Below, in pieces: positions 12,296-35,502 of a stretch of 64,000 nt of DNA. Both the position numbers and the translations under genes were made by a program. The stretch is taken from IMG/VR virus record IMGVR_UViG_3300021440_000016; one strand, written 5' to 3'. The stretch is from a virus (taxonomy: Duplodnaviria > Heunggongvirae > Uroviricota > Caudoviricetes). A model generated the notes under the pieces. It was not told the DNA's origin. It saw nothing but the letters and a program-made list of their open reading frames with translations, and made no database searches. The stretch's first letter is position 1. Each line of letters starts with the position of its first letter.

Positions 12296-12519
12296 TGTTC
12301 ATCACACTAACCGACATTATAAAGAATACTCAAATTCGAATTAACACTGCGCACATCATAGGCTATCAGCGTAACATGTCCGTTCATGATGGACAGGAGT
12401 ATACAGCAGTGTTTCTTACTGACAGAGAAGTTGGAGTAATTTTCGTAAACCAATCTCCTGAACAGATCGACAAGTTACTTGGAGAGTGCTTTATTACAGT
12501 AAAGCCCGAAATGACATGA
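12295..12519 (+). CDS. hypothetical small protein
   Basis: ORF only. Confidence 0.3.
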   Translation: MFITLTDIIKNTQIRINTAHIIGYQRNMSVHDGQEYTAVFLTDREVGVIFVNQSPEQIDKLLGECFITVKPEMT

Positions 12520-12713
12520 ATCAAGACGATTTTCAAAGCTTTATAAAGAGCAGAATCATCCCTGCTAAATGGCATATGTATGCAGCCATAGGGCAAACTC
12601 TATTTAATTTAAATATTATAGATGATAATAATTACCATATAGGCAGCGACACGAACAGTACCGCATATGTCGTAAAATGTATGATAAGAGACTATTGTGA
12701 AACTTATTGCTAG
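12486..12713 (+). CDS. small protein, FxDLxII-motif family
   Basis: Contains TLFNLNIIDDNNYHIG. Confidence 0.35.
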   Translation: MLYYSKARNDMNQDDFQSFIKSRIIPAKWHMYAAIGQTLFNLNIIDDNNYHIGSDTNSTAYVVKCMIRDYCETYC

Positions 12714-12936
12714 TTCGTATTATCCCCAATTACCAACGATAGAAGCCTTACTAAAGGCTCCACACAATGTAGGAAGACAACTTTCCGAGCTTGCGGCTGT
12801 TATTTCTGTTGCAACTGGCATTCCACTTGTGGCAATATGTATCATAGTGGAGAAGATTCAAGGTCAAAGCGAGGAGCTTACTCAGCAGAAACAGAGACTG
12901 ATTGAGTTTTACGGATATACCGAGATTATTGAATGA
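12697..12936 (+). CDS. hypothetical protein
   Basis: ORF only. Confidence 0.3.
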   Translation: MKLIASSYYPQLPTIEALLKAPHNVGRQLSELAAVISVATGIPLVAICIIVEKIQGQSEELTQQKQRLIEFYGYTEIIE

Positions 12937-13202
12937 GTACTTTTTATTATACAGAAGAGGAAGCAAAACAAGTATTTGTTATCCTCAGACAGTTAAAGGT
13001 GCATAATAAACGTATTCATAGTTTTGTGGAATTAAACTATTTAGAACCTATTTATGATTCTTTGTCTGATCTTTTCAAAGCCACATACGGCGAGGGTATC
13101 CTAGACACATTAAAATACGGAACCGCCTTCACCGCAACATACAAAGGCACTTGGAATTCAATTTCAACTCCTATTGCTTTGTGTCCCGATAACGAGGAAT
13201 AA
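12933..13202 (+). CDS. hypothetical protein
   Basis: ORF only. Confidence 0.3.
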   Translation: MSTFYYTEEEAKQVFVILRQLKVHNKRIHSFVELNYLEPIYDSLSDLFKATYGEGILDTLKYGTAFTATYKGTWNSISTPIALCPDNEE

Positions 13203-14312
13203 ATGAGTAAGTCACTTAAGCTAAGTCACTCAGCTACTAGAATGTATTCTCAATGTAGCCGTAAGTATCAGCTACATTATCAAAAGCGGTTTCGCTCAAA
13301 GCTCACATCAGGCGCCCTGCTATTCGGTAGCTCCATGGACCATGCCCTTAATGATCTCTTAGAGCATCGTAATCTAGACCAAGCGCTAAAGCTATTTGAC
13401 AAGAGCTTTCGCTTTAACTTCATTAACAAAGTAGGTACTTATCTCCCTGAAACTACTCTTGTAACCTACGCTAAATCAGATTTTGACACAGACTTACTGA
13501 CTGAAGAGGACATTAAAAAATTTAATGAAAAACAATATGAATGGAATGTTTACCTTTCTAAGTCGATTGGAGAAGTCGTTTCTGTTCTACAGGCTAAGAA
13601 AGCTGAATCGGGCTTTAATTCTCTTTCTGAAGAAGAGAAAAAGGCCCTGAACCTTGCAAACTGGCTATGCCTTAACCGCAAAGGCCAGATCATGATCAAA
13701 AGCTACTACGAAAAGGCTCTACCTAAGATCAAAAACGTACTAGCTATTCAAAAACAAGTAGAAGTGGGCAATCAAGAAGGCGACAAGCTCATTGGTTATA
13801 TCGATCTTATTGTAGAAACTCAGGACGGCAAGCGATACGTGATGGATAATAAGACTTCTTCTATTGAGTATGAAGCTAATTCCGCACAACGAAGTCAGCA
13901 GCTTATTCTGTACTATCACATTACTAAACAAGAGTATAAGCTAGACGGCGCCGGTTTTATTGTGATGATGAAGCACATACTTAAGAACAAGGTTAAAACC
14001 TGCTCCAAGTGCCAGTACGATGGATCTGGTGGAAGACATAAGACCTGCGCCAATGAGATTGACGGTAAACGTTGCGGAGGGGAATGGATTGAAGTCATTA
14101 ACCCTGAAGCTCGTATTGAGTGGATTACTAATGAGGTGCCAGAAGCGGCAGAAAATCTAGTAATGGAAACTTTCGATGAAGCTAACTGGGGCATTAAGAA
14201 TAACATCTTTGGTCCAAACCTCGGAGCCTGCTTCAATGGCCCTATTGTGTGTGAGTTTGCTAAATACTGCTGGGAAGGTTCCAAGGAAGATCTAGTAGAG
14301 TTGCATGATTAA
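13203..14312 (+). CDS. PD-(D/E)XK nuclease with Fe-S cluster (Cas4/RecB-like phage exonuclease)
   Basis: GYIDLIVETQDGKRYVMDNKTSS is a D...ExK motif. One N-terminal Cys plus C-terminal CSKC...C...C cysteines. Confidence 0.6.
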   Translation: MSKSLKLSHSATRMYSQCSRKYQLHYQKRFRSKLTSGALLFGSSMDHALNDLLEHRNLDQALKLFDKSFRFNFINKVGTYLPETTLVTYAKSDFDTDLLTEEDIKKFNEKQYEWNVYLSKSIGEVVSVLQAKKAESGFNSLSEEEKKALNLANWLCLNRKGQIMIKSYYEKALPKIKNVLAIQKQVEVGNQEGDKLIGYIDLIVETQDGKRYVMDNKTSSIEYEANSAQRSQQLILYYHITKQEYKLDGAGFIVMMKHILKNKVKTCSKCQYDGSGGRHKTCANEIDGKRCGGEWIEVINPEARIEWITNEVPEAAENLVMETFDEANWGIKNNIFGPNLGACFNGPIVCEFAKYCWEGSKEDLVELHD

Positions 14313-14517
14313 CACTTTAAAGAATTTTTTTGCTCGTTGGCTAAAAAAAGACAATGATATGTCTGTTAAAGTAATTCTTGCGCTAGAAGCTTACCACAGA
14401 ACCCAACTACCCCTTGAGGCTCGACTGTGGATAGAGTGCAGCACACTTGGTATGTCGTATGGGATTATTACCGGATTTGACTACATCCGGACGGCTGAAA
14501 ATTTAGATATTCTATAA
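14305..14517 (+). CDS. small protein, possible motif-family member
   Basis: Contains LGMSYGIITGFDYI. Confidence 0.3.
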   Translation: MINTLKNFFARWLKKDNDMSVKVILALEAYHRTQLPLEARLWIECSTLGMSYGIITGFDYIRTAENLDIL

Positions 14518-14586
14518 ACTACGCTAAAACCCAAATATGGGAGATTTGTGCTTGTTTTTATTGTTAAGGTATTATAGACTATACAC

Positions 14587-14859
14587 ATGAAAGTGAAAAT
14601 GAAAACCGTAGAAGTTAGCTGTAACGAATACCGCGAGAGATTTAAAAAAAATTGGGAGTTCTACGCCCTTGCTGGCGATTCTTATCTCAATGGATTTAAA
14701 GACGCGGTGGATATGCTCACCGAAATGTTAGCTCACGATAATAATGCTCTTACCGCGCTCTATCATGTGGGTCAACAGGTTGTAGAAATTGAATTCAATA
14801 ATGGAAGTCACCAGATTGGAGCTAAAATGAGCGACAAGGTGCAGGAGACTACCGCTTGA
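14587..14859 (+). CDS. hypothetical protein
   Basis: ORF only. Confidence 0.35.
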   Translation: MKVKMKTVEVSCNEYRERFKKNWEFYALAGDSYLNGFKDAVDMLTEMLAHDNNALTALYHVGQQVVEIEFNNGSHQIGAKMSDKVQETTA

Positions 14860-15542
14860 GTCAGATCCAAGTTGAATTACAGGAATCGATGGGTAGCGAC
14901 CGCCGAATTGCCGAATCTGCTTGGACCTCCAGCAGTACGCATGACACCAAACTTACTAAGACCGACCAACAGGTGGCTGACTTAGTAAACCGACTAGCTA
15001 ACGAAGGCCATGCTACACCGTTTGAAGCAGTAGTACTGCGCTTCTGGATTAAAATGCCTATTGCAACAGATCGTCAGCACATGACACATCGAATTGCTTC
15101 CCATAACGGAATGTCTGGACGTTATAGAACCATGCCTAGCGAATTTCTAGCAATGCCAGATGAAATTGTATCTATTCTTGATAAGTGTATGCACTCTGAC
15201 AAAGTAAAACAAGACTATGAAGACTTGTGCCTTAACGCTAATATGTGGTACTCTCAAGTAATGGCAATGGTTAAGGCTAACTATTCTACGGGTAACTTTA
15301 CCAATCCAGAGTACAAGCGAATTAGGGAGTTCCTAAGAGGGGTACTTCCCCAGCACAACATGACCGAGCGGGTTACCGTGATGAATCTTCGTAGCTTTGC
15401 GAACTATCAGCGTTTACGCAATTCGGAGCACGCTCAACCGGAAATTAGAGAAGTATCAAGGTTAATGCTAGAAGCAGTTAAGGCGGCTAACGTTTGTCCA
15501 ATTGCTCTAGCTGCACTAGAGCGCCTTGGTTGGCAGATCTAG
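14856..15542 (+). CDS. thyX: FAD-dependent thymidylate synthase ThyX
   Basis: THRIASHNGMSGRY matches the ThyX signature RHR-x7-S...RY. Confidence 0.65.
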   Translation: MSQIQVELQESMGSDRRIAESAWTSSSTHDTKLTKTDQQVADLVNRLANEGHATPFEAVVLRFWIKMPIATDRQHMTHRIASHNGMSGRYRTMPSEFLAMPDEIVSILDKCMHSDKVKQDYEDLCLNANMWYSQVMAMVKANYSTGNFTNPEYKRIREFLRGVLPQHNMTERVTVMNLRSFANYQRLRNSEHAQPEIREVSRLMLEAVKAANVCPIALAALERLGWQI

Positions 15543-15551
15543 GCTGGTAAT

Positions 15552-15984: not shown

Positions 15985-15996
15985 TAAGGAGAAACA

Positions 15997-16587: not shown

Positions 16588-16589
16588 GT

Positions 16590-17588: not shown

Positions 17589-17629
17589 GGGCGTAGATTG
17601 ATCCTTTCCGGTCTACGCCCTCTTATTTT
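17589..17629 (+). terminator. intrinsic terminator
   Basis: Perfect 9-bp stem GGGCGTAGA/TCTACGCCC with a 14-nt loop, followed by TCTTATTTT. Confidence 0.6.
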
Positions 17630-17637
17630 AAGGACTT

Positions 17638-17874: not shown

Positions 17875-18087
17875 ATGATGAAGTACAAAGGCTTTCAAAA
17901 ATACGTTAGAGAGACCTTCTCATCGGATTTATGGTATTTTGCGGATACCTGTGTTATTTTATATAATTTGAGTATCCTGCAGGAAGATGCACCGCAGCTG
18001 GGTTGCCAAATCTGTGAAAAGATTAGCGAAGAACATTCTAAGTTTGTAAGACAGTATCGTCTTCTTGACTTACAAACCGTAATCTGA
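17875..18087 (+). CDS. small protein, FxDLxII-motif family
   Basis: Contains ILYNLSILQEDAPQLG. Confidence 0.35.
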   Translation: MMKYKGFQKYVRETFSSDLWYFADTCVILYNLSILQEDAPQLGCQICEKISEEHSKFVRQYRLLDLQTVI

Positions 18088-20295: not shown

Positions 20296-20574
20296 GTGTT
20301 CGATACTTTCGCTGGAGTTCATGTACAAGTATTCACTAAATCCTCTATCAGCGAGATCCTCTCCTCCGAAGAGGGATCTGTGCAGCAGAGTCTTCCTTTA
20401 ACCCTTACCGGTTATTTGATTGACTATGACGACAAGTTCTATTACCTAGGAGATACGCCGTATGAGGCTGACTCTGTTGTATCTGTAGATCAGGTAGTAA
20501 TCATCAAGGAAATCAAACAAATTGATGAACTTGACGTGCTTATGGACATGAAGGGTCCTCCTTCTGTAAACTAA
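20296..20574 (+). CDS. hypothetical protein
   Basis: ORF only. Confidence 0.35.
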   Translation: MFDTFAGVHVQVFTKSSISEILSSEEGSVQQSLPLTLTGYLIDYDDKFYYLGDTPYEADSVVSVDQVVIIKEIKQIDELDVLMDMKGPPSVN

Positions 20575-20765
20575 TGACGTTTGAAGAGGCCAATAAGGTC
20601 ATTCTTGCTGCTAAATCCATTGATAACCCGCTTTTAAAGGATTTGAGTATAACTAAAATTTTTGCGGCCGTCGGTATTTTCGCTGCTGAGTGGTTTCCAG
20701 ACAACTCCCACGGAGATGAACCGCAAGTGAGAATGACTATTTGGTTATATTCTAAACATATTTGA
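20574..20765 (+). CDS. small protein, motif-family-like
   Basis: Contains KIFAAVGIFAAEWFPD. Confidence 0.3.
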   Translation: MTFEEANKVILAAKSIDNPLLKDLSITKIFAAVGIFAAEWFPDNSHGDEPQVRMTIWLYSKHI

Positions 20766-20989
20766 CTTTAACTGAAGCTCGTGAGCATGTGCGCGGAGAT
20801 AATTACCTAGAGATGGATTTTCTGATCACAGATGTACTTTCAAACGTCGGGATAATTGAAAACTGCTGGTTTAATGATTTAAATATTATTACCGAGGATT
20901 TGGGAGAGACAGAAATAGTGGTCAGAACAAGAATTTGGAACTTCGTCGCTCACGACCTACTTCTAACGGTACCTAGGACCTTCTATTAG
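20762..20989 (+). CDS. small protein, FxDLxII-motif family
   Basis: Contains VLSNVGIIENCWFNDLNII. Confidence 0.35.
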   Translation: MTLTEAREHVRGDNYLEMDFLITDVLSNVGIIENCWFNDLNIITEDLGETEIVVRTRIWNFVAHDLLLTVPRTFY

Positions 20990-20990
20990 T

Positions 20991-21236: not shown

Positions 21237-21481
21237 CTTCTATTGAGAGTACCCTATCGGTATACCTTAGGCCGCATTTCCTTGCTGTAAGCACAGAAGA
21301 GGATGTAATAAATATAGTGGTGTCTCACCCTAGATTTCTCTTGCAGCGAATGTCGGAAAGGGTCTCGTCAGTATTCCAGCTAATTAAAACGCATTGTCCA
21401 GAAATACTTACCCGCAGAACGGTCGTAGTACAGCCCTTCTCCGCAAGTGAAATCAACGATTTATTTGAGTATTGGATATGA
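21221..21481 (+). CDS. hypothetical protein
   Basis: ORF only. Confidence 0.3.
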   Translation: MQSDVASIESTLSVYLRPHFLAVSTEEDVINIVVSHPRFLLQRMSERVSSVFQLIKTHCPEILTRRTVVVQPFSASEINDLFEYWI

Positions 21482-21696
21482 AGCCTACTATTCATGAAAT
21501 GGCAAGAGAGTGTCTTAAAAAAAACTACCCTTTAGTTGACTACGTTGACATATTTACCCTTTTAACTTTTTATGAACTCCGTATCATAGACGAGGCTGGT
21601 TATTTCATAGGAAACTTTAAACGAGCACAAAATAAAAATATAGCTAATATAGTTTTCGACTATGCTCAGCTTTTTCTGGAACATGAGCAACCTTGA
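21472..21696 (+). CDS. small protein, FxDLxII-motif family
   Basis: Contains TFYELRIIDEAGYFIG. Confidence 0.35.
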   Translation: MDMKPTIHEMARECLKKNYPLVDYVDIFTLLTFYELRIIDEAGYFIGNFKRAQNKNIANIVFDYAQLFLEHEQP

Positions 21697-21765
21697 CACA
21701 TTAACGAAGCAATGGTAGAATAAAGAAGACTAAGAGGTTCTTAGAAAAATTGGAGACTTCACATA

Positions 21766-24015
21766 GTGCTCTCACAATCACATCAAGCTAAGATTAAGAT
21801 TATATCTTCTGTAGCCGGTCTTCGCTCTTTATTTGAGGTCACTGCTCAGCAGAGCGACGAATTTGTAACAATCGATACCGAAACTGACAGCGTAAATGAA
21901 AAGATCGCTAGACTATACGGAATCGGTTTGTGCTTTAATGAAAAAGAAGCGTTCTACATTCCCATTCGCAGGCAGGACGGTAATTTGTTCTGGTCTGAAA
22001 AAACCATTTCAAAGTTATCTCAAGAGCTTCTTAAGCTAAGCACTCACAAAAAGCTCCTAGGTCATAATATTATTTATGACGTTCTTGTTCTAAAAAATAA
22101 TCTCGGAATCGATCTTACTTCTCATATTTTTGCAGACACCATTCTTCTTAAACATTGCATCGACGAGGAGCCGCCTTTCGGACTTAAAGAAACTGCCGTT
22201 AAGTACTTAGGTCCTTGGGCAGATAAAGCCCAGCAAGCTCTCTATGATAATATCAAAAAGAATGGTGGCAAGACTACCAAAGAAAACATGGAGATGTACA
22301 AAGCCGACACCGAGGTATTAGCAGAGTATTGCGGCTATGACGTTGTACTGACTTACATGCTTTTTCAGTATTTCAGCCCTAAACTTCATGAACAGGAGCT
22401 AGACAAGCTCTTCTATGAAGACGAGATTATGCCTCTCTATAGGGAGTGCGTTATTCCGATGAAAGATAACGGATTTCCTATCGACATTGAGTATTTTCAC
22501 CAACTGAAGAAAGACATTCAAGAAGATATTCTTAAGCTAGAAGGTGAGATTCATCAAGATATTAAAGAACATACAGATGAGTTTGCCTCTAAAGAGCTTA
22601 ATGAGGAGTTCCCAGTGAAGCGCACCGGTAACTTCCCCAAAGAACTAGCTTTACTCATGGGAGTTACTTCTCCTGTCACAAAAGCTGCGATTAAAAAGTT
22701 TGAACCTTTTTCTCATGAAGCGTTTCAGTTTAAAGATTGGTTTCTAGAATCTACAGAAGAAATCAATCCCGTTCTTATCGCGCAGGCTCAGAGAAATCTC
22801 TGGCATAAGCGCTACCCAGAAGATCGTTATATCTTTAATCTCAATAGCAATAAGCATTTGTCGTGGCTATTTTTTGAACAACTAGGAATGCAACCAAAAG
22901 ATCGCACCGACACCGGAGCGCCAAAGCTTGACGCGGCTACGTTAGAAGATATGGCCGGGGAGCACCCCTTTTGCGATAAGATCATCGAGTACAAAAAACT
23001 ACAGAAGATTGCTGGCACGTACATTGACGGTATTCTTGATCGCCAGTATCAGGGTGTTGTGTACGGCAGCTTCTTAATGTTTGGAACTACTTCTGGGCGA
23101 TTCTCTAGCCGCGACCCCAACATGCAGAATCTTCCTCGCGTAAAGGACGAAGATTCAAAGCTATCCCCTCTTGTGCTTAAGTATGTTAACGCCATTAAGC
23201 GCGGCTTTGTAGCAGGTGAGGGCTATAAGCTCGTCAACGCTGACTTCTCTGCTCTAGAGCCTTGCGCATTTGCCAGCGCCTGCGGCGACAAAAAACTACA
23301 GCAGATTTTTAAAAACAAATGGGACCTATACTCTTCTATTGCCATCGAGGCTGAAAATCTTCAGGACAAGTATAGCGCAGATAAGAAGGCTGAGAACTAT
23401 CTAGGGAAGCAGGCTAAAGAACTTAGACAGAAGTATAAAGCCGTAGCACTAGCAGTTGTATACGGAGCAGAGTCAGGTCGTATTAGTCAGGTCATTGGAT
23501 GTAGTCAAAACGAAGCTCAAGTCATTATTGACAATTATCTAGATGCTTACCCTGGGCTTGTTCAGTATATGAACGACTGCGATAAACAAGTAGCTACTCA
23601 AGGGTTTATCCGCAATAAGTTTGGACGTATTCGCCACTTGCCGGAAGCAAAGCGCCTAGCTGCAACGTACGGCAGAACCCTACTAGATCGCCACTGGGCG
23701 CGTAAAAACGGATTATCAGAAGCCCGTTACCAACTTAAGAACTATTTAAATAACGGCAAGAATTTCCCTATTCAATCTACTGCTGCTCACATCGTTAACA
23801 GAGCCATGCTAAAAGCCACTAGACTTCTAAAAGAGAACAACATCGAGGGGCAAATAATAGCTCAGGTTCACGACGAACTAACTCTCATAGTCAAAGAAGA
23901 ACAAGCGGAAGCCGCTGCAAAGCTACTTAAAGAAGCAATGGAAAATACAACTAGGATTGAAGTACCTCTAGTAGCTGACCCGGTAATTGGGAATAACTGG
24001 GCAGAAGTTAAATAA
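21766..24015 (+). CDS. DNA polymerase, family A, with 3'-5' exonuclease domain
   Basis: Exo I TIDTETDS; motif A DFSALE; motif B RQKYKAVALAVVYG; motif C VHDE. Confidence 0.8.
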   Translation: MLSQSHQAKIKIISSVAGLRSLFEVTAQQSDEFVTIDTETDSVNEKIARLYGIGLCFNEKEAFYIPIRRQDGNLFWSEKTISKLSQELLKLSTHKKLLGHNIIYDVLVLKNNLGIDLTSHIFADTILLKHCIDEEPPFGLKETAVKYLGPWADKAQQALYDNIKKNGGKTTKENMEMYKADTEVLAEYCGYDVVLTYMLFQYFSPKLHEQELDKLFYEDEIMPLYRECVIPMKDNGFPIDIEYFHQLKKDIQEDILKLEGEIHQDIKEHTDEFASKELNEEFPVKRTGNFPKELALLMGVTSPVTKAAIKKFEPFSHEAFQFKDWFLESTEEINPVLIAQAQRNLWHKRYPEDRYIFNLNSNKHLSWLFFEQLGMQPKDRTDTGAPKLDAATLEDMAGEHPFCDKIIEYKKLQKIAGTYIDGILDRQYQGVVYGSFLMFGTTSGRFSSRDPNMQNLPRVKDEDSKLSPLVLKYVNAIKRGFVAGEGYKLVNADFSALEPCAFASACGDKKLQQIFKNKWDLYSSIAIEAENLQDKYSADKKAENYLGKQAKELRQKYKAVALAVVYGAESGRISQVIGCSQNEAQVIIDNYLDAYPGLVQYMNDCDKQVATQGFIRNKFGRIRHLPEAKRLAATYGRTLLDRHWARKNGLSEARYQLKNYLNNGKNFPIQSTAAHIVNRAMLKATRLLKENNIEGQIIAQVHDELTLIVKEEQAEAAAKLLKEAMENTTRIEVPLVADPVIGNNWAEVK

Positions 24016-24184
24016 AATGAATGATTATCGCCTCTCTTCCTTTGAGCTAGATCTAATCTACAAATACTTTCAAGATCTAAGTATTATTCCAAGTACCCTA
24101 TCAATAGAAGAATGGGATAAGCTACCAACCAGAGAAATACCAGAAGGGTATAGATGCTTCGAAGATCTCTTCTGGACTTATTAA
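23987..24184 (+). CDS. small protein, FxDLxII-motif family
   Basis: Contains YFQDLSIIPSTLSIEEWD. Confidence 0.3.
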   Translation: MGITGQKLNKMNDYRLSSFELDLIYKYFQDLSIIPSTLSIEEWDKLPTREIPEGYRCFEDLFWTY

Positions 24185-24274: not shown

Positions 24275-25123
24275 ATGTTAAATAAGAAATTTGGAAGATG
24301 GACTGTGATTGAAGAGGGTAAACACAAAGATTATAAGGTTTTATGTAGATGCGATTGTGGAAAAGAAAGGAGAGTTAGAACAGATGGTCTTAAAAATGGC
24401 TCATCTGTTTCCTGTGGATGTTTCCATAAAGAGGTAACAAAAAGACTTGCTTTTAAAAATAGATTAAAAATTGGAGATAAGTTTAATAAATTAACAGTGA
24501 TTGGTTTAATAAAGAATGAGAAGCAAAGAACCTATTATTATAATCTAATTTGTGATTGTGGGGATTCTCCAAAACCAACAAGAGCAGAGGCGCTGATAAA
24601 AGGTAAAGTTAAATCGTGTGGATGTCTAGCGAGGGAACGAACTAGAGAAATGGGAAGACGACCAAAACCAAAGAAACCGATAGACGTAAGAATTTTATAC
24701 GCTATTAGAAATCACTGTAAAAACAATGCAAAAGCTAGAGGCATATACTTCAATTTAACAATAGAAGACGTAAATAGTGTAATATATAATAACTGTATAT
24801 ACTGTAACAGAGAACCCTCTAATGTATATACCATTAAATATCGAAATGAATCTAAAAAGTATTCTGGAATAGATAGATTAGATAATAATTTAGGATACGA
24901 AATAGGTAATTGTGTACCATGTTGTCAGTCATGTAATTCATTAAAAAATGGTATTACTCCTAATATGGTGCATATACTATATAACTTATATCTTGAAACT
25001 GGCGTATTTTCCAGGTACAATATAAGTAATGAAAATGAGATTCTTTCAGATCGCAAAGAAAGCAACAACCCTTTCCACTCATCCTCAACACCGAGTAGGG
25101 GTTGTGATAACAAGGAAGAGTAG
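24275..25123 (+). CDS. HNH homing endonuclease
   Basis: Repeated GRWTV...CxCDCG / CGC zinc modules; C-terminal IDRLDNNLGYEIGNCVPCCQSCN HNH-like core. Confidence 0.55.
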   Translation: MLNKKFGRWTVIEEGKHKDYKVLCRCDCGKERRVRTDGLKNGSSVSCGCFHKEVTKRLAFKNRLKIGDKFNKLTVIGLIKNEKQRTYYYNLICDCGDSPKPTRAEALIKGKVKSCGCLARERTREMGRRPKPKKPIDVRILYAIRNHCKNNAKARGIYFNLTIEDVNSVIYNNCIYCNREPSNVYTIKYRNESKKYSGIDRLDNNLGYEIGNCVPCCQSCNSLKNGITPNMVHILYNLYLETGVFSRYNISNENEILSDRKESNNPFHSSSTPSRGCDNKEE

Positions 25124-25388
25124 AGTAATATCCACAGGGTATAACCTACTAAAGACTCATCCCCGCAGCCCTCATGGGTATAAATCACAGCACGCGGAAT
25201 TCCGTGCTATCTGGGGCTTAGATCCTCGCGATCTTAAGGGCGCAACAATCTACGTATACCGACAGAGTCGCGATGGATCTCTTGCACTTTCAAAACCCTG
25301 TCCTAGCTGTCTTAACCTCATTAAATCGGTAGGGATAAAGACTATCTACTACACAGATTATAATTCCTACACAACGGAGAACTTGTGA
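25029..25388 (+). CDS. dCMP/cytidine deaminase
   Basis: HAEFRAI...(28 aa)...PCPSC zinc-binding signature. Overlaps the HNH 3' end in another frame. Confidence 0.55.
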   Translation: MKMRFFQIAKKATTLSTHPQHRVGVVITRKSRVISTGYNLLKTHPRSPHGYKSQHAEFRAIWGLDPRDLKGATIYVYRQSRDGSLALSKPCPSCLNLIKSVGIKTIYYTDYNSYTTENL

Positions 25389-25594
25389 GTACGTCTAACT
25401 TCTATCGAAGGTACTTAGAGTTCTGTAAAATAATAGGAAATCTACATAATTATAACGATTATATCAATTATAACTTAACTATGTCTTACTTTATAGAATT
25501 AGGTATCACAAATTACGATAATCCTAACACGTTTGAAAATAAGTTATCTCAAATTGCTTATAAATATTTCGTTCCTAGAGGGTTTAATTGGTAA
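25385..25594 (+). CDS. small protein, FxDLxII-motif family
   Basis: Contains SYFIELGITNYDNP. Confidence 0.3.
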   Translation: MSTSNFYRRYLEFCKIIGNLHNYNDYINYNLTMSYFIELGITNYDNPNTFENKLSQIAYKYFVPRGFNW

Positions 25595-25785
25595 TGAAAT
25601 ACACAACATGGGGAGAATTTGCAGAGTTACATAGACTTGAGAATGACCTGTATTGGTCAGATATGAACCTCATTATGCAATACTTCGTTGACTTAAATAT
25701 AGATAGACCTCCAACAAACCCAGAAAATTTTAGTAATACGAGACTATCTATTTACGTATTTAGTAACTATGAAGAAGACACTTGA
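25588..25785 (+). CDS. small protein, FxDLxII-motif family
   Basis: Contains QYFVDLNIDRPPTNPENF. Confidence 0.3.
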   Translation: MVMKYTTWGEFAELHRLENDLYWSDMNLIMQYFVDLNIDRPPTNPENFSNTRLSIYVFSNYEEDT

Positions 25786-25817: not shown

Positions 25818-26039
25818 ATGAAATTTAAAGAAACAAATAGATTACACATACCCTGTAAATCAGAGCTTCTTTACTATGATATAACTCTATTATTATTTGA
25901 ACTGAACATTTTAAGGGTAGATCATTATAGTACATCGTCACATCTTCCCTATGGACTAAAGAATAATGATAAAGAGATAGAAATTAAAGTTAAGCACCAA
26001 GTAAATCTGTATACAAATAAAGCTTGCAAAGAAAACTGA
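25818..26039 (+). CDS. small protein, FxDLxII-motif family
   Basis: Contains LLFELNILRVDHYS. Confidence 0.3.
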   Translation: MKFKETNRLHIPCKSELLYYDITLLLFELNILRVDHYSTSSHLPYGLKNNDKEIEIKVKHQVNLYTNKACKEN

Positions 26040-26078
26040 CCTATAGTAATCTAGAAACATAATCGAGGAGAAAACTAA

Positions 26079-27155
26079 ATGAAACCGACCCATATTCATG
26101 AAATTCTGAATCTTACCCGTCAGGCCCGCAGTCTTGGACATAAATTCAATCCACTTTTTGTCGGACCTCCCGGCATTGGTAAGTCTGAAATTATTCAGCA
26201 GTGGTGCAATAAACATAATATTCCCTTTATCGATCTTCGGGCAGCCTATCTTGAAGCCCCAGACGTTATCGGCTTTCCTCAGATTAAGGAGGTAGATGGT
26301 CGCGCCCGCACCATTCACGCTCTCCCCGAATTCTGGCCCGCTGACCCTAATTGGGAAGGCGTCATTCTGCTTGAAGAACCCAATCGAGGCACTACCTCTG
26401 TCATGAACACGTTTATGCAGATGCTCACTGATCTGCAAGTCCACCTCTACAAGCTCCCTAAGCGGGCTATGATTGTTGGAGCAATCAATCCTGAAAACGA
26501 AGAGTACGATGTTAACACCATGGATGCGGCTCTTAAGAATCGCTTTGAGATGTTCCATGTTGACTACGACGCTGAAAGCTTCATCAAGTTTATGCGGGAC
26601 GATGAATGGGACGAACGAGTTGTTGACTTCGTCCGAGGTAATTTCTGGACTTACGTTAAGCCGGAAGATGTAGCGAATAATCCCGGAGCTAAGTATATTT
26701 CTCCTCGTTCTCTCAGTAAGCTTAACTCAGCTCTTAAAGCTGGCGTCACTGAAATGGACATGGCTGTGCAGATGATGGTTTTTGAGTCCGTACTCGGAAA
26801 GAACTACGCCATCCAATTTTTTAATTTCATCTCCAAGGAGCGTCCGGTCTTTGTACGCGATCTCCTTGAGAATAAGGATGAAGCCATCAGCCGTCTTGCG
26901 CAGTTCGCTAATCCTGACAACTACAAGAACGGTCACATCTCTATGTTTATCGAGGATCTTAAGAGTTCACATGAACAGGTAAGCAACGCCGTGCTCGCGG
27001 AAGTTCTTGTAACTCTTCCTGCCGACCAATCTATCAACCTTATTCGGGAGCTTGAGTACCTCAAGAAAGTCAAAACCGGAAGCCTTGCCAAGGAGCTTGC
27101 AAAGGATTACCCCGAAGTGAAGAAATACTTTGCAAAGCATCTCAAGAAGAGCTAA
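26079..27155 (+). CDS. AAA_5 (MoxR/CbbQ-like) ATPase
   Basis: Walker A GPPGIGKSE; Walker B ILLEEPNR; compact AAA_5-like length. Confidence 0.55.
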   Translation: MKPTHIHEILNLTRQARSLGHKFNPLFVGPPGIGKSEIIQQWCNKHNIPFIDLRAAYLEAPDVIGFPQIKEVDGRARTIHALPEFWPADPNWEGVILLEEPNRGTTSVMNTFMQMLTDLQVHLYKLPKRAMIVGAINPENEEYDVNTMDAALKNRFEMFHVDYDAESFIKFMRDDEWDERVVDFVRGNFWTYVKPEDVANNPGAKYISPRSLSKLNSALKAGVTEMDMAVQMMVFESVLGKNYAIQFFNFISKERPVFVRDLLENKDEAISRLAQFANPDNYKNGHISMFIEDLKSSHEQVSNAVLAEVLVTLPADQSINLIRELEYLKKVKTGSLAKELAKDYPEVKKYFAKHLKKS

Positions 27156-28588: not shown

Positions 28589-28802
28589 TAATATAGAAAC
28601 GTTATGGGTGGTAAGCTCGTGCGGACTATATAAGTTCTGTATTATGCAGAGCTTTATTAAAAAATACGGCGATATTGTGAGGACGGAAGATGTTTATCGA
28701 TTAATGACTCACTATAGACTAGATATGTACTTGCATAATGACAGCGGTTCTGCTATTTTATATCTAGAGCCAGGAAAAGAGAACATAAAGGCTTTTTTTT
28801 AA
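28578..28802 (+). CDS. hypothetical small protein
   Basis: ORF only. Confidence 0.3.
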   Translation: MVADNIETLWVVSSCGLYKFCIMQSFIKKYGDIVRTEDVYRLMTHYRLDMYLHNDSGSAILYLEPGKENIKAFF

Positions 28803-28900
28803 ATGGTAAACAAGTGACTGAGGAAGAAATTCCAAAGTTGAAGCATAACAAGGACTTCAAAAAAGAAACTGAAGACCTTTTCGGTATTTAAGGAGATAGT

Positions 28901-29257
28901 ATGGATATGGAAAAGAAGCTTATGGACACTGCTCTTGACAGCACGGTTACCTTTCAGGTAAAAGGTAAGCTCAGTAAGGATGAGAAGCTGTTCAATTACG
29001 AGGTAACTGTGAAGTCTGGATTTTTTCGCCAAGAAAAAAAGCCTGATTTGACTAAGAATACCATTCAAGAACTCATTACCGATTTTAATATTCTTCCGTT
29101 CCTTCATAATCCGGTAGGTCCTAGTATCACCAACACGGATACTGGCGAACGCGGGTACTTCATCAATGGTCATCCCCTTACCCCAGAAGAGGGCGCCAAG
29201 CTCCAGCATAACGTAGACTTTAAAACTGAGGCTGAGGAAGTCTTTGGCATTAAATAA
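28901..29257 (+). CDS. hypothetical protein
   Basis: ORF with GGAGA RBS. Confidence 0.4.
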   Translation: MDMEKKLMDTALDSTVTFQVKGKLSKDEKLFNYEVTVKSGFFRQEKKPDLTKNTIQELITDFNILPFLHNPVGPSITNTDTGERGYFINGHPLTPEEGAKLQHNVDFKTEAEEVFGIK

Positions 29258-29419
29258 GTTCTTGATGACCACAGATGAGGCTTACCTAGCCTTCGATATT
29301 CTCAAAAAATTGCAAGTAATTACAAACATCAGAACTGGCACAATAGAACAGCTTCATTTTCTTTGGGCTGTTTGTGACAATTCTGATTATTGGTATGGAC
29401 TTCTTAGGAAGGAATTATA

Positions 29420-30583
29420 ATGTTTTTGGAAGAATCACTAACTTATGCTGACGTACTAATCAAACCTGCTTTTTCTATGATTAGGTCCCGTAAGGAAGTT
29501 ACGCTAGACACTACCTTCTTGGGTGTTAATATTGGTCTACCTCTTATCTCGTCTAATATGGACACTGTGACTTCTCCTCAGATGGCCGCAGCAATGTCTA
29601 AGGCTGGAGGGCTTGCTGCGCTTCATAGGTTTCAAACTATCGAGCAGAATGTTGATCAATTTTACGCATCAGTAGACCTTTCCGCTAATTCTCTTCACTC
29701 ATCAAAGTACACTAAGAAACCTATTGGTAGTTTTGGAATCGGCGATATGGAGTACGAACGAGCGTTGGCCCTATATGACGCAGGGACTGAGATTCTTCTA
29801 CTGGACGTAGCGCATGGTGCAGCTATTCACGTAGTTGAGCAATATGACCGGGTACGGTCCAGAGTTGGGAATAATTGTGCTATTATCGTGGGTAATTTTG
29901 ATAACTATGATTCTGTTAATGCTTTTATTGGTCATCTGAAGTCCAGCCGTAAACCAGACGCTCTGAAAATCGGCGTAGGTAACGGAGCCGCGTGTATCAC
30001 TCGCGTAGTCACTGGTTGTGGAGGTGGCATGATTTCCGCCCTGCTGGACTGCTCTCTATCTGGAATTCCTCTGATTGCCGATGGTGGTACCAAGAATAGC
30101 GGGGATATCGCAAAGGCTCTAGCGGCTGGCGCTAGTATGGTAATGGCTGGAAGTATGCTTGCTGGAACGGAGGAATCTCCCGGTGAGCTGGTTTATTTTA
30201 ATTCTCTTAATCAGCAAGTAACAAAGGATGAGCTTTTCCGTAAAATCTATTCTGAGAAATCTGATTCTTTCGAATATGTTATTCATAGTCCAGAAGAGTC
30301 TTTTTACAGCATTAAAAAGAAATACCGTGGCTCAGCTTCTCAAGAGTCATACGAAGTGCAAGGAAAGGTAGACAACCATCGCACCCCTGAAGGTGAGGCA
30401 ATGCTTCTACCGTATAAGGGTCCGGTGGCCCCTATTCTAGAGTCTAATGCCGCTGGCCTTAAGTCTACCCTTGCATACGTAGGGGCAAAGAGCTTGACAG
30501 AATTTAGAGACAATGTTAAGCTAGTAAAAGTCAGCACCTCAACGTTAGCAGAAAATGGCGCCCACGGAAAGCATAGGACATAA
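29420..30583 (+). CDS. IMP dehydrogenase / GMP reductase family enzyme
   Basis: LISSNMDTVTSPQMAAAMSKAGGLAALHRF and catalytic-loop-like KIGVGNGAACITRVVTGCGGG. No CBS insert; GMP-reductase-like length. Confidence 0.5.
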   Translation: MFLEESLTYADVLIKPAFSMIRSRKEVTLDTTFLGVNIGLPLISSNMDTVTSPQMAAAMSKAGGLAALHRFQTIEQNVDQFYASVDLSANSLHSSKYTKKPIGSFGIGDMEYERALALYDAGTEILLLDVAHGAAIHVVEQYDRVRSRVGNNCAIIVGNFDNYDSVNAFIGHLKSSRKPDALKIGVGNGAACITRVVTGCGGGMISALLDCSLSGIPLIADGGTKNSGDIAKALAAGASMVMAGSMLAGTEESPGELVYFNSLNQQVTKDELFRKIYSEKSDSFEYVIHSPEESFYSIKKKYRGSASQESYEVQGKVDNHRTPEGEAMLLPYKGPVAPILESNAAGLKSTLAYVGAKSLTEFRDNVKLVKVSTSTLAENGAHGKHRT

Positions 30584-30586
30584 AAA

Positions 30587-32089: not shown

Positions 32090-32402
32090 AAGAATAGACT
32101 ATAAAGCGTTAGCTAAGAATATTCCACATAACGTTCAGGTCGCTAATAAGCGGGCCTACGAAGTTCTTTACTCGGACACCATCAAGTTTGATAATAACAT
32201 CATGGGCGAAACTCGCTTTGACCCCCCTCAAATCGTTCTTCAAACGGGACAGTCTAGTAGAGAAATGGTTTTAACGTACTGGCATGAATTCCTCCATGCC
32301 ATATCGGAGGAGCACGAAGTCCCTCTTACTGAATCCGAAGTGCGGAGGCTGGAGCGCTCCTTTACTTACTTCTATAAGTTTTTTGATACCCTCAAAGGAT
32401 AA
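32082..32402 (+). CDS. small protein with HExxH motif
   Basis: WHEFLHAISEEHE contains HEFLH; possible mini zinc-metallopeptidase. Confidence 0.3.
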   Translation: MSKRIDYKALAKNIPHNVQVANKRAYEVLYSDTIKFDNNIMGETRFDPPQIVLQTGQSSREMVLTYWHEFLHAISEEHEVPLTESEVRRLERSFTYFYKFFDTLKG

Positions 32403-32405
32403 TCC

Positions 32406-33191
32406 ATGAGCAAAAAGAATAGGCCAAAGGTTCTTCTACTAGACATCGAAATAAGCCCGTTACTCGCCTCAGTGTGGGCTTTGTTTGATCAAAACGTAGG
32501 CCTTAATCAAATTCAAAGAGATACTTTCATACTCTCATTCAGTGCCAAGTGGCTAGATAGCGATAAGGTCATTTATATGGACCAGAGTCGCGCAAAGGAC
32601 ATCGAGGACGACTCAACCCTACTAAAGGCTGTGTGGAAGTTACTAGACGAGGCTGACATCGTGATTGGTCAGAACTCAAAACGTTTTGATATTAAGAGAT
32701 TAAATGCTCGATTCATAATTAATGGCATGCAGCCACCTTCTAGTTTCAAGCAAGTAGACACCCTAGAATTAGCTAAACGAAATTTTGCTTTTACCTCCAA
32801 TAAACTAGAGTATCTCAGCAGTAAGCTGTGCACTAAACACAAGAAGCTTACTAAGCGGAAATACGCCGGATTTGAACTTTGGAAGGAATGTCTAAAGGGC
32901 AATAAGGCCGCTTGGAAAGAAATGCGAGAGTATAATACTTTAGACGTATTATCTCTACAAGAGCTATATGAGAAACTAGCACCATGGGGATCACCAGTTA
33001 ACTTTGAACTTTACTCTGATGAAGTTTCTACCAAGTGTAACTGTGGCTCTGAAGAGTTTACGAAGAACGGATTTAAGTATACATCTTCTGGAAAGTTCCA
33101 ACGATTCAAATGTATTAGCTGTGGAGCTGAGCACCGCGATAAGAAGAACTTATTCACGAGAGAAAAACGAGCTTCTTTAGGTGTGAAGTAA
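32406..33191 (+). CDS. DnaQ-like (DEDD) 3'-5' exonuclease with C-terminal zinc ribbon (tentative)
   Basis: LLLDIEISPL (exo I-like D-x-E), FDIKRLNARF, YNTLDVLSLQELY (exo III-like), CNCG...CISCG. Confidence 0.35.
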   Translation: MSKKNRPKVLLLDIEISPLLASVWALFDQNVGLNQIQRDTFILSFSAKWLDSDKVIYMDQSRAKDIEDDSTLLKAVWKLLDEADIVIGQNSKRFDIKRLNARFIINGMQPPSSFKQVDTLELAKRNFAFTSNKLEYLSSKLCTKHKKLTKRKYAGFELWKECLKGNKAAWKEMREYNTLDVLSLQELYEKLAPWGSPVNFELYSDEVSTKCNCGSEEFTKNGFKYTSSGKFQRFKCISCGAEHRDKKNLFTREKRASLGVK

Positions 33192-33415
33192 TGGATAAAT
33201 ATAATACACGCTTGAGTAATCTAAACCCAACAAACTACATAAACAATCATGTTCTTACGCTTGAGTATAACTATAGGAAGGCATTCTTTGATTTAAATAT
33301 TATTACAAATGAACCTTGGTTGCTCGTACTTCAATATGAAACAGATTATGCTGTATCAGGAAAGGTGATTGATTATGTTGAAAAATGCTTCAGGGATCAA
33401 ATACGACGCAGGTAA
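33191..33415 (+). CDS. small protein, FxDLxII-motif family
   Basis: Contains AFFDLNIITNEPWLLV. Confidence 0.3.
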   Translation: MDKYNTRLSNLNPTNYINNHVLTLEYNYRKAFFDLNIITNEPWLLVLQYETDYAVSGKVIDYVEKCFRDQIRRR

Positions 33416-33683
33416 GCCCAAGCTCTCATACCTTCCCTATGACGCTTTAGTGGAAGTCGCTAAGGTAATGGAATTCGGCGCTCAGAAATACGATAAGCAC
33501 AATTATAAGAAGGGTATGGAATATACCAGACTTATAGATGCGGCCTTCAGACACCTACACCAATTTAACGACGGTCAAGATTTAGACGAAGAATCCCATC
33601 TAAATCACATCTCACATTGTATCTCTAATCTTCTTATGCTATTGTGGATGGTAAAACATAAGCCCGAGATGGATAATCGATAA
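33369..33683 (+). CDS. MazG-like dATP/dGTP pyrophosphohydrolase N-terminal-domain protein (tentative)
   Basis: GKPKLSYLPYDALVEVAKVMEFGAQKYDKHNY resembles phage nucleotide-pyrophosphohydrolase domains. Confidence 0.35.
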   Translation: MIMLKNASGIKYDAGKPKLSYLPYDALVEVAKVMEFGAQKYDKHNYKKGMEYTRLIDAAFRHLHQFNDGQDLDEESHLNHISHCISNLLMLLWMVKHKPEMDNR

Positions 33684-34129
33684 TGCTAAAACTAGAAGTA
33701 TTTAAGTTAGATAAAACCGCAACAACCCCTACCCGGAATAATCCTAATGACGCTGGAGTGGATATTTACTCTAACGCTGATGTCTTTATTCCTGTAGGTA
33801 AGACTGTGAAAGTACCTACCGGCGTAGCTATGCGCGTAGCTAATGGATATGTCGGTAAGATTGAGGATCGTAGCTCTATGGGAGCTAGGGGTATTCGTAC
33901 TGGAGCTGGGATCATAGATGCCGGGTTCAGTGGAGAAGTATCAATTGTTCTGCATAATCTTAATAATACTGAATCAGAAGCTAATGGAGTTCGTGGCTAT
34001 ATGGTACGAAAGGGAGATAAAATCGCCCAGATGCTGGTGGTGCATGTGTACACTCCAGTAGTAGCCGAGGTGGACTCCTTGTGGATTTCAGAGCGAGGAA
34101 ATAATGGTTTCGGCAGCTCGGGTCGGTAA
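33683..34129 (+). CDS. dut: dUTP diphosphatase
   Basis: All five dUTPase motifs present: DAGVDIY, RSSMGARG, GIIDAGFSGEV, KIAQML, GNNGFGSSGR. Confidence 0.8.
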   Translation: MLKLEVFKLDKTATTPTRNNPNDAGVDIYSNADVFIPVGKTVKVPTGVAMRVANGYVGKIEDRSSMGARGIRTGAGIIDAGFSGEVSIVLHNLNNTESEANGVRGYMVRKGDKIAQMLVVHVYTPVVAEVDSLWISERGNNGFGSSGR

Positions 34130-34377
34130 TGGGTAGAATCAGTGATCCTAATCCGCCGCTACACGTAAGGAAACTATTACTTATTTATCCTAATTTGCTA
34201 TTAGATTATAAAATTAACCATTTACTTTTTTCTTTAACAGTGTTAGAATCGGATCAGTGGGCTTTGCTGCCTGATTTAGCTCCTCTACCGGAGGATAGGC
34301 GAGCACTAGATCACTGGGAGAATGAGATAAAGCGCGTCATTGAGGAATATGCAAAAAAACTCTCGAAAGAAACGTAA
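34129..34377 (+). CDS. hypothetical protein
   Basis: ORF only. Confidence 0.3.
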   Translation: MGRISDPNPPLHVRKLLLIYPNLLLDYKINHLLFSLTVLESDQWALLPDLAPLPEDRRALDHWENEIKRVIEEYAKKLSKET

Positions 34378-34663
34378 GCCAAGAGATTCCGATGAAGAGA
34401 CAATCGAAAGACTACAACAGGAGCTTAGAGAGCTAAAAGCATTGAACCGCAGCTTAATGAAGCGTCTGAAGAAAGTAGACAGAGAATACCATAAAGCTTT
34501 TGACGAAGAAGAAGTGTACGAAGCTAAACATAAAAAACAGAATGAGTTCGATTGCCCTCAGTGCGGTAAGGGTCATTTAAAAGACAACACCGGAATTCCG
34601 GGCAGATTATTCAGAACCTGCACATCTTGCGACTACAAAAGTAAGATCGAGAGGCTACGATAG
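34340..34663 (+). CDS. basic coiled-coil protein with zinc ribbon
   Basis: CPQCG...CTSCD; Lys/Arg-rich. Confidence 0.35.
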   Translation: MRNMQKNSRKKRKPRDSDEETIERLQQELRELKALNRSLMKRLKKVDREYHKAFDEEEVYEAKHKKQNEFDCPQCGKGHLKDNTGIPGRLFRTCTSCDYKSKIERLR

Positions 34664-34864
34664 ATGACTTATAAAGAATGTCTTGAAGAAGTTAAAATGT
34701 TAGGCTATCCTTTTTATTACATTAGAGTCAATACAATGGATGCCCTTATTGGCTCATGCCTAAGTGACCTCGGAATTATTGATGATGATGCAGACCTCGG
34801 CAAGGGTGAAAACCGTGTTAAGTTCCAGATTTGGAAACATGCTTATAACGAAGTTCACAAATAG
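34664..34864 (+). CDS. small protein, FxDLxII-motif family
   Basis: Contains CLSDLGIIDDDADLG. Confidence 0.3.
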   Translation: MTYKECLEEVKMLGYPFYYIRVNTMDALIGSCLSDLGIIDDDADLGKGENRVKFQIWKHAYNEVHK

Positions 34865-34892
34865 GCACAGTAGTAAATACTAGCAGGTGTAG

Positions 34893-35297
34893 ATGCCAAA
34901 ACAACAATCGTTTGATAAAAAACTAAAATCATTTGTTACCTCTACCTTAAGGCGAGCCTCACTACGTTGGCCCGCTAGATCTGAAGCCCTCAGAAATGCT
35001 AGAACTTCTAGGGGTTTATATCAATGTTCTATGTGTGGCGGTCAGTTCAAAGCCAAAGAAATAGATATTGACCATACGGTTCCAGTAGTGAGTACCGCCT
35101 CGGGGTTTACTAACTGGGATGATTTCATCAATCGACTATTTGTCCCAGCAGAGAAGCTTTCCGCTTTATGCAAGCCCTGCCATCTTAGCAAAACTCTCTT
35201 AGAGGATAGAACTAGGGCGAATATTAACGCCATAAAAAAAGGCGAGCAAGCGGAGATTATCAAGGCCGCTAAAAAAAGCAATAAAGATGATAAATAG
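34893..35297 (+). CDS. HNH endonuclease
   Basis: CSMCGG...IDIDHTVPV...CKPCHLSK: CxxC/H/CxxCH HNH core. Confidence 0.55.
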   Translation: MPKQQSFDKKLKSFVTSTLRRASLRWPARSEALRNARTSRGLYQCSMCGGQFKAKEIDIDHTVPVVSTASGFTNWDDFINRLFVPAEKLSALCKPCHLSKTLLEDRTRANINAIKKGEQAEIIKAAKKSNKDDK

Positions 35298-35502
35298 ATA
35301 CCCTCTGTGTTCCTATGAAGAGATCCTCCATACCTGTTACGACGAAGAATCGCGCCTAGAAGCGCACACCTGTCAAACTCTACTGAAGCTAGATATTATA
35401 GAACGAAATGAATATCTATTAGTTAATCATGAGCTTGGGATGGAGTATAGAGTAAAGAACGAAGTAGCTACTTATGCAAATGAGTCAAGTAACCGAATTT
35501 AA
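35287..35502 (+). CDS. small protein, FxDLxII-motif family
   Basis: Contains TLLKLDIIERNEYLLVNHELG. Confidence 0.3.
   Translation: MINRYPLCSYEEILHTCYDEESRLEAHTCQTLLKLDIIERNEYLLVNHELGMEYRVKNEVATYANESSNRI

Follow-up and report, generated by a model that had tools for sequence, protein, structure and literature searches.

The 64,000-nucleotide stretch of DNA analysed here (the window; IMG/VR record IMGVR_UViG_3300021440_000016) is part of the 85.5-kb contig ERZ27252002:k141_716791 from an ENA metagenome assembly and belongs to a freshwater tailed phage. The interval under study lies in a + strand module for replication and nucleotide metabolism. That module codes for a PD-(D/E)XK nuclease, ThyX, ERF, a DnaB-like helicase, PolA, a dCMP deaminase, an AAA_5 ATPase and a DUF2201 protein. 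It also codes for an IMPDH-like protein, an AAA ATPase, an RNase H-like exonuclease, a dGTP diphosphohydrolase, a dUTPase, an HNH protein and a ClpP-like protease. Scattered among these genes are small open reading frames (ORFs) whose products are 58–82 amino acids (aa) long, mostly about 65–75 aa. Fifteen of the 57 genes of the module are of this kind and, judging from their sequences, they almost certainly form one genuine homologous family. This appears to be a previously undescribed family of small acidic helical proteins that is common to a few related phages. A profile search detected no members in the structural module, in the window's first 12 kb or in the 8.7 kb of contig that precede the window.

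Fifteen small genes of the replication module form one family

The original prediction, made from the sequence of this DNA, described at least 15 paralogous ORFs with a common F-x-[DEN]-L-x-I-[IL] core between positions 12486 and 35502. All 15 are indeed present on the + strand, the one missing from the list of ORFs being 29244–29420 with a possible ATG at 29265. As written, the core is too strict. Four ORFs match it literally (0.04 are expected in shuffles), a number small enough to suit the contrary view that a short hydrophobic pattern recurs by chance in small AT-rich ORFs, not all of them genes. A shared core does emerge in the looser form [FL]-x-[DENKS]-L-x-I-x, which is found in 14 of 66 small + strand proteins compared with 0.52 ± 0.71 (maximum 3) in shuffles. 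The shuffled proteins do not reach the observed count, and the predicted excess over chance is borne out. Elsewhere, large proteins totalling 15,389 aa contain no instance of the looser pattern, and off-frame ORFs totalling 14,250 aa contain two. In the listed ORFs the motif always falls within residues 20–39 of a product of 58–75 aa. Since the looser pattern was chosen post hoc, we rely on profile tests against decoys.

The set used for these tests contains 1115 sequences: real genes, off-frame ORFs, ten shuffles of each small gene and reversed sequences. With leave-one-out (LOO) hidden Markov models (HMMs), 12 of the 15 listed ORFs came out in the top five when held out, and the only sequences that repeatedly outranked held-out ORFs were two more real genes, 34129–34377 and 37414–37626. 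An HMM built from 23 sequences of other contigs placed exactly 15 window genes in the top 15, with E-values from 1.7e-13 to 0.036, ahead of a first decoy at E = 0.59. These 15 genes are 13 of the ORFs listed earlier together with 34129–34377 and 37414–37626. The composition of the predicted family thus changes while its size does not: 13 of its ORFs are supported, 23987–24184 and 29244–29420 are not, and with the two added members the right boundary moves from 35502 to 37626.

Similarity extends beyond the seven-residue pattern. When the eight-residue core was masked in the targets, the C-terminal half alone allowed the external profile to place six members at ranks 1–6 and nine in the top 14, with weaker enrichment from the N-terminal part (six members in the top 27). 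Pairwise BLAST and jackhmmer yield weak links that join subsets of the members.

The members occupy otherwise empty gaps, and many of their starts overlap the preceding stop by 1–4 nucleotides (nt). Independent gene calls in public collections include 13 of them. The ENA annotation of the contig skipped several, which, like the failure of 23987 and 29244 in every profile test, may be counted in favour of chance recurrence. Against this stand the 14 motif matches where 0.5 are expected, the homologues at syntenic positions in other phages and, above all, the LOO, external-only and motif-masked profiles, which refute chance for the 15 members. As an account of the whole set chance is scarcely credible, and it stands for 23987 and 29244 only.

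The codons of the conserved Leu and Ile residues vary between paralogues (TTA, TTG, CTC, CTA and CTG; ATT, ATA and ATC), and no repeated DNA was found flanking or associated with the family genes. Conservation therefore acts on the protein and not on the DNA. A conserved DNA element beneath the motif was rejected on account of the varying synonymous codons.

Sequence signature and predicted fold

In the alignments the core block reads [YD]-x-x-I-G-x-x-[FL]-[YF]-x-L-x-I-[LI]-x-x-[DN]-x-[YFW], with conserved positions that are mostly hydrophobic or aromatic. A second conserved block, [DE]-x-x-[IV]-[KR]-x-x-[ILV]-x-x-Y, lies near the C-terminus, and a weak M-T-[FWY]-x-E signature is seen at the N-terminus. 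In a set of 38 window and external members, which was also used for the family-model scans described below, the median isoelectric point (pI) is 5.2; it is below 6 in 26 proteins and above 8 in two. Neither a metal motif of Cys or His residues nor a long hydrophobic segment is present in the members. The family genes have a lower G+C content (35.1%) than the other small genes (39.5%) and the large genes (43.0%) of the module (p = 2e-5).

AlphaFold2 predicts three main helices, with a hairpin-like short connection between helices 2 and 3. The predicted local distance difference test (pLDDT) score is 71.7 with an alignment of 15 sequences and 78.6 with 25 sequences. In the models helix 2 ends in the core motif, which also makes up the hairpin-like connection, and the C-terminal motif is arranged on one face of helix 3. 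The individual members are listed in Table 1.

Table 1. Members and possible members of the small-protein family in the window. E is the E-value obtained with the HMM built only from sequences of other contigs; LOO is the rank among 1115 sequences with the leave-one-out HMM. L002, L003, L004, L011 and L015 are contigs of related phages and P0020 is an external family member.
Coordinates (strand)	Length and start	Position	Core	E	LOO	Remarks
12486–12713 (+)	75 aa from GTG; database call from ATG 12516, 65 aa		LFNLNIID	1.7e-13	1	Best external-HMM match; positional orthologues L003 7446–7655 and L004 7002–7193
15552–15767 (+)	71 aa	Directly 3′ of ThyX	FFNLQIAE	9.5e-8	1	Slot-matched ORF after Thy1 in L003, L004 and L011
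17638–17865 (+)	75 aa	First of tandem pair, after terminator 17589–17620	FYNLAIVE	1.2e-6	2	
17875–18087 (+)	70 aa	Second of tandem pair, just 5′ of primase/DnaB-like helicase	LYNLSILQ	0.036	5	External-HMM rank 15, above all decoys; weakest accepted member
20574–20765 (+)	63 aa	First of tandem pair		1.5e-5	62 (failed)	Subtype MTFEEA...IT...EP-x-[VI]R; blastp to 20762–20989 E 9e-4; nearest relative P0020, 39%
20762–20989 (+)	75 aa	Second of tandem pair; start overlaps stop of 20574–20765 by 4 nt	LSNVGIIE	4e-5	1 (E 1e-8)	
21472–21696 (+)	74 aa; database call from 21478, 72 aa	5′ of DNA polymerase A	FYELRIID	3e-6		AlphaFold2 pLDDT 78.6; three helices and hairpin-like loop predicted
25385–25594 (+)	69 aa	First of tandem triplet, after dCMP deaminase	FIELGITN	0.014	3	blastp to 25588–25785 E 0.005
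25588–25785 (+)	65 aa; database call from 25594, 63 aa	Second of tandem triplet		0.0052	3	Two motif-like stretches, FAELHRLE and FVDLNID
25818–26039 (+)	73 aa	Third of tandem triplet, 5′ of AAA_5 ATPase	LFELNILR	1.4e-10	1	
33191–33415 (+)	74 aa	Directly 3′ of RNase_H_2-like exonuclease	FFDLNIIT	4.1e-7		Slot-matched members L002 7816–8013 and L015 7828–7980
34129–34377 (+)	82 aa	Directly 3′ of dUTPase	LFSLTVLE	7.6e-11		Absent from earlier list; above decoys in nearly all LOO runs; orthologue L002 9322–9546, 59% identical
34664–34864 (+)	66 aa	5′ of HNH gene	LSDLGIID	2.3e-6	1 (E 2.4e-5)	
35287–35502 (+)	71 aa	3′ of HNH gene	LLKLDIIE	7.6e-8	1 (E 4.6e-6)	
37414–37626 (+)	70 aa; database call from 37420, 68 aa		LYKLEISG	0.033		Absent from earlier list; external-HMM rank 14; above decoys in most LOO runs; slot match L002 13269–13484
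23987–24184 (+)	Likely ATG 24017	Just after PolA stop	FQDLSII		94	Possible divergent or N-terminally short member; motif match; C-terminal FEDLFWTY; recovered by no profile (HMM E 5.5)
29244–29420 (+)	Likely ATG 29265		LKKLQVI		281	Possible divergent member; recovered by no profile

Other elements lie beside these genes. A strong intrinsic-terminator-like hairpin with a 12-bp stem and a T-rich tail is found just 5′ of the pair 17638/17875, at 17589–17620 (+), and is the only strong terminator that a terminator scan returned. Just before PolA, at 21693–21721 (+), there is a near-consensus sigma-70 promoter (TTGACA-17-TAGAAT with TG), which hints that the host uses sigma-70-type promoters. Long antisense ORFs at 25956–26558 (−, 200 aa) and 28799–29272 (−, 157 aa) run over + strand genes and are most likely spurious; a simple longest-ORF caller nevertheless prefers the latter over the real + strand gene 28901–29257.

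Comparison with known protein families

Scans of all members against Pfam, PHROGs, NCBIfam and PADLOC gave no consistent match. PHROGs returned scattered matches of single members (E ≥ 0.004) to families without a named function, as well as one spurious match to the RuBisCO small subunit. No match to a known anti-defence or host-takeover protein was obtained in fold searches of the PDB and BFVD, and no homologue of a characterised protein of this type (anti-CRISPR, Ocr/ArdA-like, or inhibitors of RecBCD or RNA polymerase) was found in PHROGs, Pfam, the PDB or BFVD. Likewise, none of the members matched a catalytic, metal-binding, membrane or DNA-binding family. In particular, there was no helix-turn-helix (HTH) match in Pfam, NCBIfam or PHROGs and no winged helix among the fold matches.

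The only database lead comes from a comparison of the family profile with PDB sequences, in which the BEN chains of BANP (8yzt, 7yug and 7yuk) are matched with E-values of 0.015–0.023. The alignment covers 26 residues (profile positions 16–42) and spans the core motif (LFYKFGITESDWY); it is marginal and partial and is confined to the hydrophobic helix. Both BEN and the family are all-alpha, the aligned stretch corresponding to the core helix and hairpin of the latter. This lead, together with the superficial resemblance of three helices followed by a hairpin to a winged helix, would be in line with small nucleic-acid-binding regulators that tune the transcription of their neighbours and are distant kin of the C-terminal half of BEN or of HTH-like folds. 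However, none of the 38 members matches the Pfam BEN model (PF10523) or an HTH model even at E ≤ 10, and structure comparison reveals no similarity to the BEN fold. Moreover, the family is acidic and phage-borne, unlike BEN, which is a basic domain that binds DNA and belongs to eukaryotes and their viruses. Because the lead is supported neither by the Pfam model nor by fold comparison or charge, membership of BEN was rejected and the family is not filed under it. A role as nucleic-acid-binding regulators is very improbable.

Relatives, conserved slots and turnover

By megablast, the region has no nucleotide match among 50,697 GenBank phage records. Its PolA is at best 34% identical to a phage PolA, that of a Flavobacterium myophage, and the AAA ATPase encoded beside the family genes has no tblastn match in the GenBank phage records. 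The phage is therefore considered to be uncultured. A scan of IMG/VR with a PolA pattern gave no match either. Related contigs come from other metagenome samples, mostly from public sequencing runs assembled by Logan.

An exhaustive HMMER search of 1.84 billion representative proteins with the 15-sequence profile produced 20 matches at E ≤ 0.001, of which 13 are the window's own proteins and seven (P0014 to P0020) are external. All seven are encoded on contigs that are syntenic with the phage. Searching all ORFs of the relatives' loci (L002, a 25.8-kb contig; L003; L004; L011; L015, a 93-kb contig; and L016) with the family profile uncovered many more members well above the decoys, for instance ten or more within about 6 kb of L002 and five or more in L015. 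Outside this phage clade, no relative was found in Pfam, PHROGs, NCBIfam, PADLOC, the PDB, BFVD, the GenBank phages or the 1.84 billion representatives. Word-indexed protein searches, run with the alignments of 15 and 38 sequences, recovered little besides the proteins of the phage itself and three close relatives of P0020. A central family member had no tblastn match in the GenBank phages, and a scan of IMG/VR with back-translated FYKLDII[DE] gave chance matches only. In more distant IMG/VR relatives, whose AAA ATPase is 53–54% identical, no members are detectable around the AAA ATPase gene.

Members hold the same inter-gene slots in related phages. Slot-matched members are 15–43% identical (59% in one pair), compared with a median of 65% (range 54–84%) for the flanking genes, including equally small ORFs of 74–106 aa (55–84%). 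The window has two tandem pairs and one triplet (Table 1). L002 has extra tandem copies (8293, 8507 and 8622) between the dGTP diphosphohydrolase and dUTPase genes and also encodes P0015, a two-domain fusion. In L003 a member precedes the PD-(D/E)XK nuclease gene, where the phage studied has no counterpart. Together these differences show that members turn over at the slots by tandem duplication and deletion, with gain and loss.

The constancy of the slots bears on the main rival to the function favoured below, namely that the proteins serve the phage's own machinery for replication and nucleotide metabolism as accessory subunits or adaptors. Every paralogue would then associate with the enzyme whose gene lies beside its own (ThyX, helicase, PolA, dCMP deaminase, RNase H-like exonuclease or dUTPase), and the shared core would assemble a common complex, for example a factory for deoxynucleoside triphosphate (dNTP) synthesis or for replication. 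Members do adjoin particular enzyme genes, in many cases with translational coupling, identical slots are filled in related phages, and the family is limited to the replication module, being absent from the early and structural regions. Yet synteny alone explains the conservation of the slots. The members also diverge far faster than their supposed partners (15–43% versus about 65% identity), the copy number per slot varies (two to three extra before dUTPase in L002, one before the nuclease in L003) and no members are detectable in more distant relatives that encode the same enzymes. We regard an adaptor role as rather unlikely.

The mean identity between paralogues is 19.7% within genomes and 19.3% between genomes. 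As paralogues are equally distant in both comparisons, the expansion is old, and concerted evolution within genomes was rejected. The age of the copies also speaks against selfish or mobile small genes that bring the phage no benefit, be they cassettes moved by repeats, passengers of homing endonucleases or toxin/antitoxin-like addiction genes. Such genes could account for the variation in presence and tandem copy number among related phages and for the low G+C content; moreover, 34664 and 35287 flank the HNH gene 34893–35297, and L011 4645–4833 lies near an HNH_3 gene. Most members, however, have no endonuclease gene as a neighbour and are not set apart from adjacent genes by any intergenic DNA. 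Flanking DNA repeats and nuclease or toxin signatures are missing, and at about 20% identity the copies within a genome are not recently spread. A selfish origin is accordingly very improbable.

Taken together, one genome contains 15 homologous copies that are significant against decoys, tandem arrays and copy-number differences distinguish related genomes, and the genes diverge faster than core genes. These are the marks of a multigene family. The sequence data are best explained by a multigene family of small acidic proteins that is specific to this lineage and diversifies rapidly. Its genes are probably co-transcribed with those for replication and nucleotide metabolism, to which many of them are translationally coupled.

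The ORFs 23987–24184 and 29244–29420 are retained as possible members only: the profiles miss both, yet short ORFs with both motifs fill the slot of 29244 in relatives. These ORFs of 43–59 aa (L002 3806–3937, L015 3048–3209 and L015 3176–3355) are without the N-terminal helix (e.g. ELVKLGIN...DLIWDYL) and are not significant by HMM. They may represent a truncated 'mini' form of the family. An 89-aa ORF at 12933–13202 (+) is weakly similar to 29244–29420 (blastp E 0.027). Its orthologue in L003 (7904–8188) contains an F-x-S-L-S-I-V-E-x-x-W stretch and has a family-profile E-value of 0.07; the two may be a remote sister group.

A putative repertoire of host-directed binders

We infer the function of the family from the way in which it varies. 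A conserved core, a variable acidic surface, rapid divergence, turnover at the slots, low G+C content and a narrow distribution form the pattern of an accessory family under diversification. From the pattern of conservation on the models, one small scaffold would have the conserved residues as its hydrophobic core and would owe its specificity to the variable and mostly acidic surface. One scaffold with a variable surface suggests that the paralogues are stoichiometric binders or inhibitors, each directed at a different protein, which would most likely be a host factor. The family as a whole might then constitute a diversified repertoire for host takeover or anti-defence. That the proteins are small stoichiometric binders aimed at host factors is the function that we favour, tentatively, stopping short of calling it probable. 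It fits with the fast divergence, the turnover in copy number, the acidity, the low G+C content and the lack of enzymatic or DNA-binding signatures. Of the original prediction, the part on an expanded paralogous family is thereby strongly supported by the profiles described above, and the suggestion of modulators for host interaction or anti-defence is compatible with the data. The DNA-binding, selfish-cassette and chance readings are less likely.

Several points weigh against host-directed binders. The members resemble no characterised anti-defence or takeover protein. Many phages keep anti-defence genes in the leftmost early region, and that region holds two S-adenosylmethionine (S-AdoMet) lyase genes here, but the family is housed in the replication module. 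Confidence in the AlphaFold2 models, which derive from shallow alignments, is only moderate. The close orthologues compared for nonsynonymous and synonymous substitutions were identical at the DNA level. Finally, relaxed constraint would equally give fast divergence and low G+C content.

The working model for the family is bacteriophage T7, the class II (DNA-metabolism) genes of which are interspersed with genes for small host inhibitors (gp1.2, gp2, gp5.5 and gp5.9). These inhibitors have no enzymatic activity, are acidic in many cases and bind one host protein apiece. As in T7, short ORFs are packed on the same strand among replication and nucleotide-metabolism genes, and the family members may work in a similar manner. 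The T7 genes, however, are unrelated to each other and to the family, whereas about a quarter of the genes in the module studied stem from a single ancestor.

Viral multigene families that evolve by duplication and loss are exemplified by MGF110, MGF360 and MGF505 of African swine fever virus (ASFV) and by the 'genomic accordions' of poxviruses. They share with the family the many diverged paralogues per genome, the tandem clusters, the variable copy number and an evolution that is faster than that of the core genes. They are found in large DNA viruses of eukaryotes and are concentrated at genome ends, in contrast to the old paralogues (about 20% identity) dispersed over conserved slots of one module in an 85-kb tailed phage.

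The original prediction likened the genes to the early-gene arrays of T-even and T5-like phages. This holds loosely at most, since those arrays are not paralogous and the genes described here belong to the replication module. In T4-type phages, hyperplastic regions and the mobile promoter-early stem-loop (PeSL) cassettes also contain small ORFs of unknown function that lie among conserved core genes and vary between related phages. Those are mostly unrelated ORFans bounded by repeated promoter/stem-loop elements, whereas the ORFs of the family are homologous, are without flanking repeats and mostly overlap or abut their neighbours. Anti-CRISPRs and other small anti-defence proteins are often acidic, evolve fast, have a narrow distribution and are devoid of enzymatic motifs, and the family is likewise small, mostly acidic, fast-evolving, narrowly distributed and without such motifs. 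In contrast to anti-CRISPR-type proteins, which are usually single-copy, it is 15-fold paralogous; it has no sequence or fold match in PHROGs, the PDB or BFVD and no associated Aca-type HTH regulator.

In its strongest form, the favoured function would mean that one minimal three-helix scaffold is present in at least 15 copies, each of which neutralises a host factor or defence system of its own. Keeping the copies at constant slots among the replication genes would ensure that they are made together with the replisome, and the repertoire would be renewed by gene birth and death. We consider this form possible but doubtful.

Other features of the phage genome

In the early region (+), the window codes for a PagL-like lipid A deacylase (4854–5447), a Band_7/SPFH protein (2015–2821) and an SLT lytic transglycosylase (1262–1681), genes that point to a Gram-negative host. 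The two S-AdoMet lyase paralogues (PF23780; L022:993–1382 and L022:1878–2267) lie on the same contig about 7–8 kb upstream of the start of the window, in the leftmost early region, with an integrase-like gene (4926–5486) and a response-regulator gene (5761–6102) nearby. S-AdoMet lyase has a known anti-restriction function. No member of the small family was found in this leftmost region.

A separate pair of small paralogues at 4445–4648 and 9705–9968 (+; blastp E 5e-10, 41% identity over 82 aa) is unrelated to the family studied and has orthologues in L003 and L004. The ribonucleotide reductase gene at 7467–9323 (+) is mosaic across the relatives: the enzyme of L003 (3483–6293; 936 aa) is 96% identical over 309 aa and has a LAGLIDADG insertion, and that of L004 (3382–5409) is a different one with only 26% identity.

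Genes for HNH, HNH_3 or Endonuclease VII proteins are found at 24275–25123 and 34893–35297 in the window and at L002 2815–3351, L002 10291–10875, L004 12114–12689 and L011 5062–5676 in the relatives. Their differing positions indicate active homing-endonuclease traffic in the clade. In the structural module, the large proteins encoded at 54028–55995 and 56492–59122 (−) are similar to each other in several segments (E 9e-20), which suggests duplicated tail-fibre-like or repeat-containing proteins; 47111–51763 is weakly similar to both.

Implications

Paralogous expansion is uncommon in phages of such size, and here an undescribed family accounts for about a quarter of the genes of a replication module and evolves several times as fast as the genes around it. 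If its members do bind host proteins, the clade would supply a natural panel of related small proteins that differ in their targets, which could be of use in finding host vulnerabilities and defence inhibitors and in studying the diversification of a minimal scaffold. Should each copy neutralise a host factor or defence system of its own, the family would represent a counter-defence repertoire with one scaffold and many targets, for which tailed phages offer no described precedent. If the members are replisome adaptors instead, they would suggest an unknown way of organising phage DNA metabolism. On either reading, the new profile can annotate ORFs that are partly missed by gene callers.

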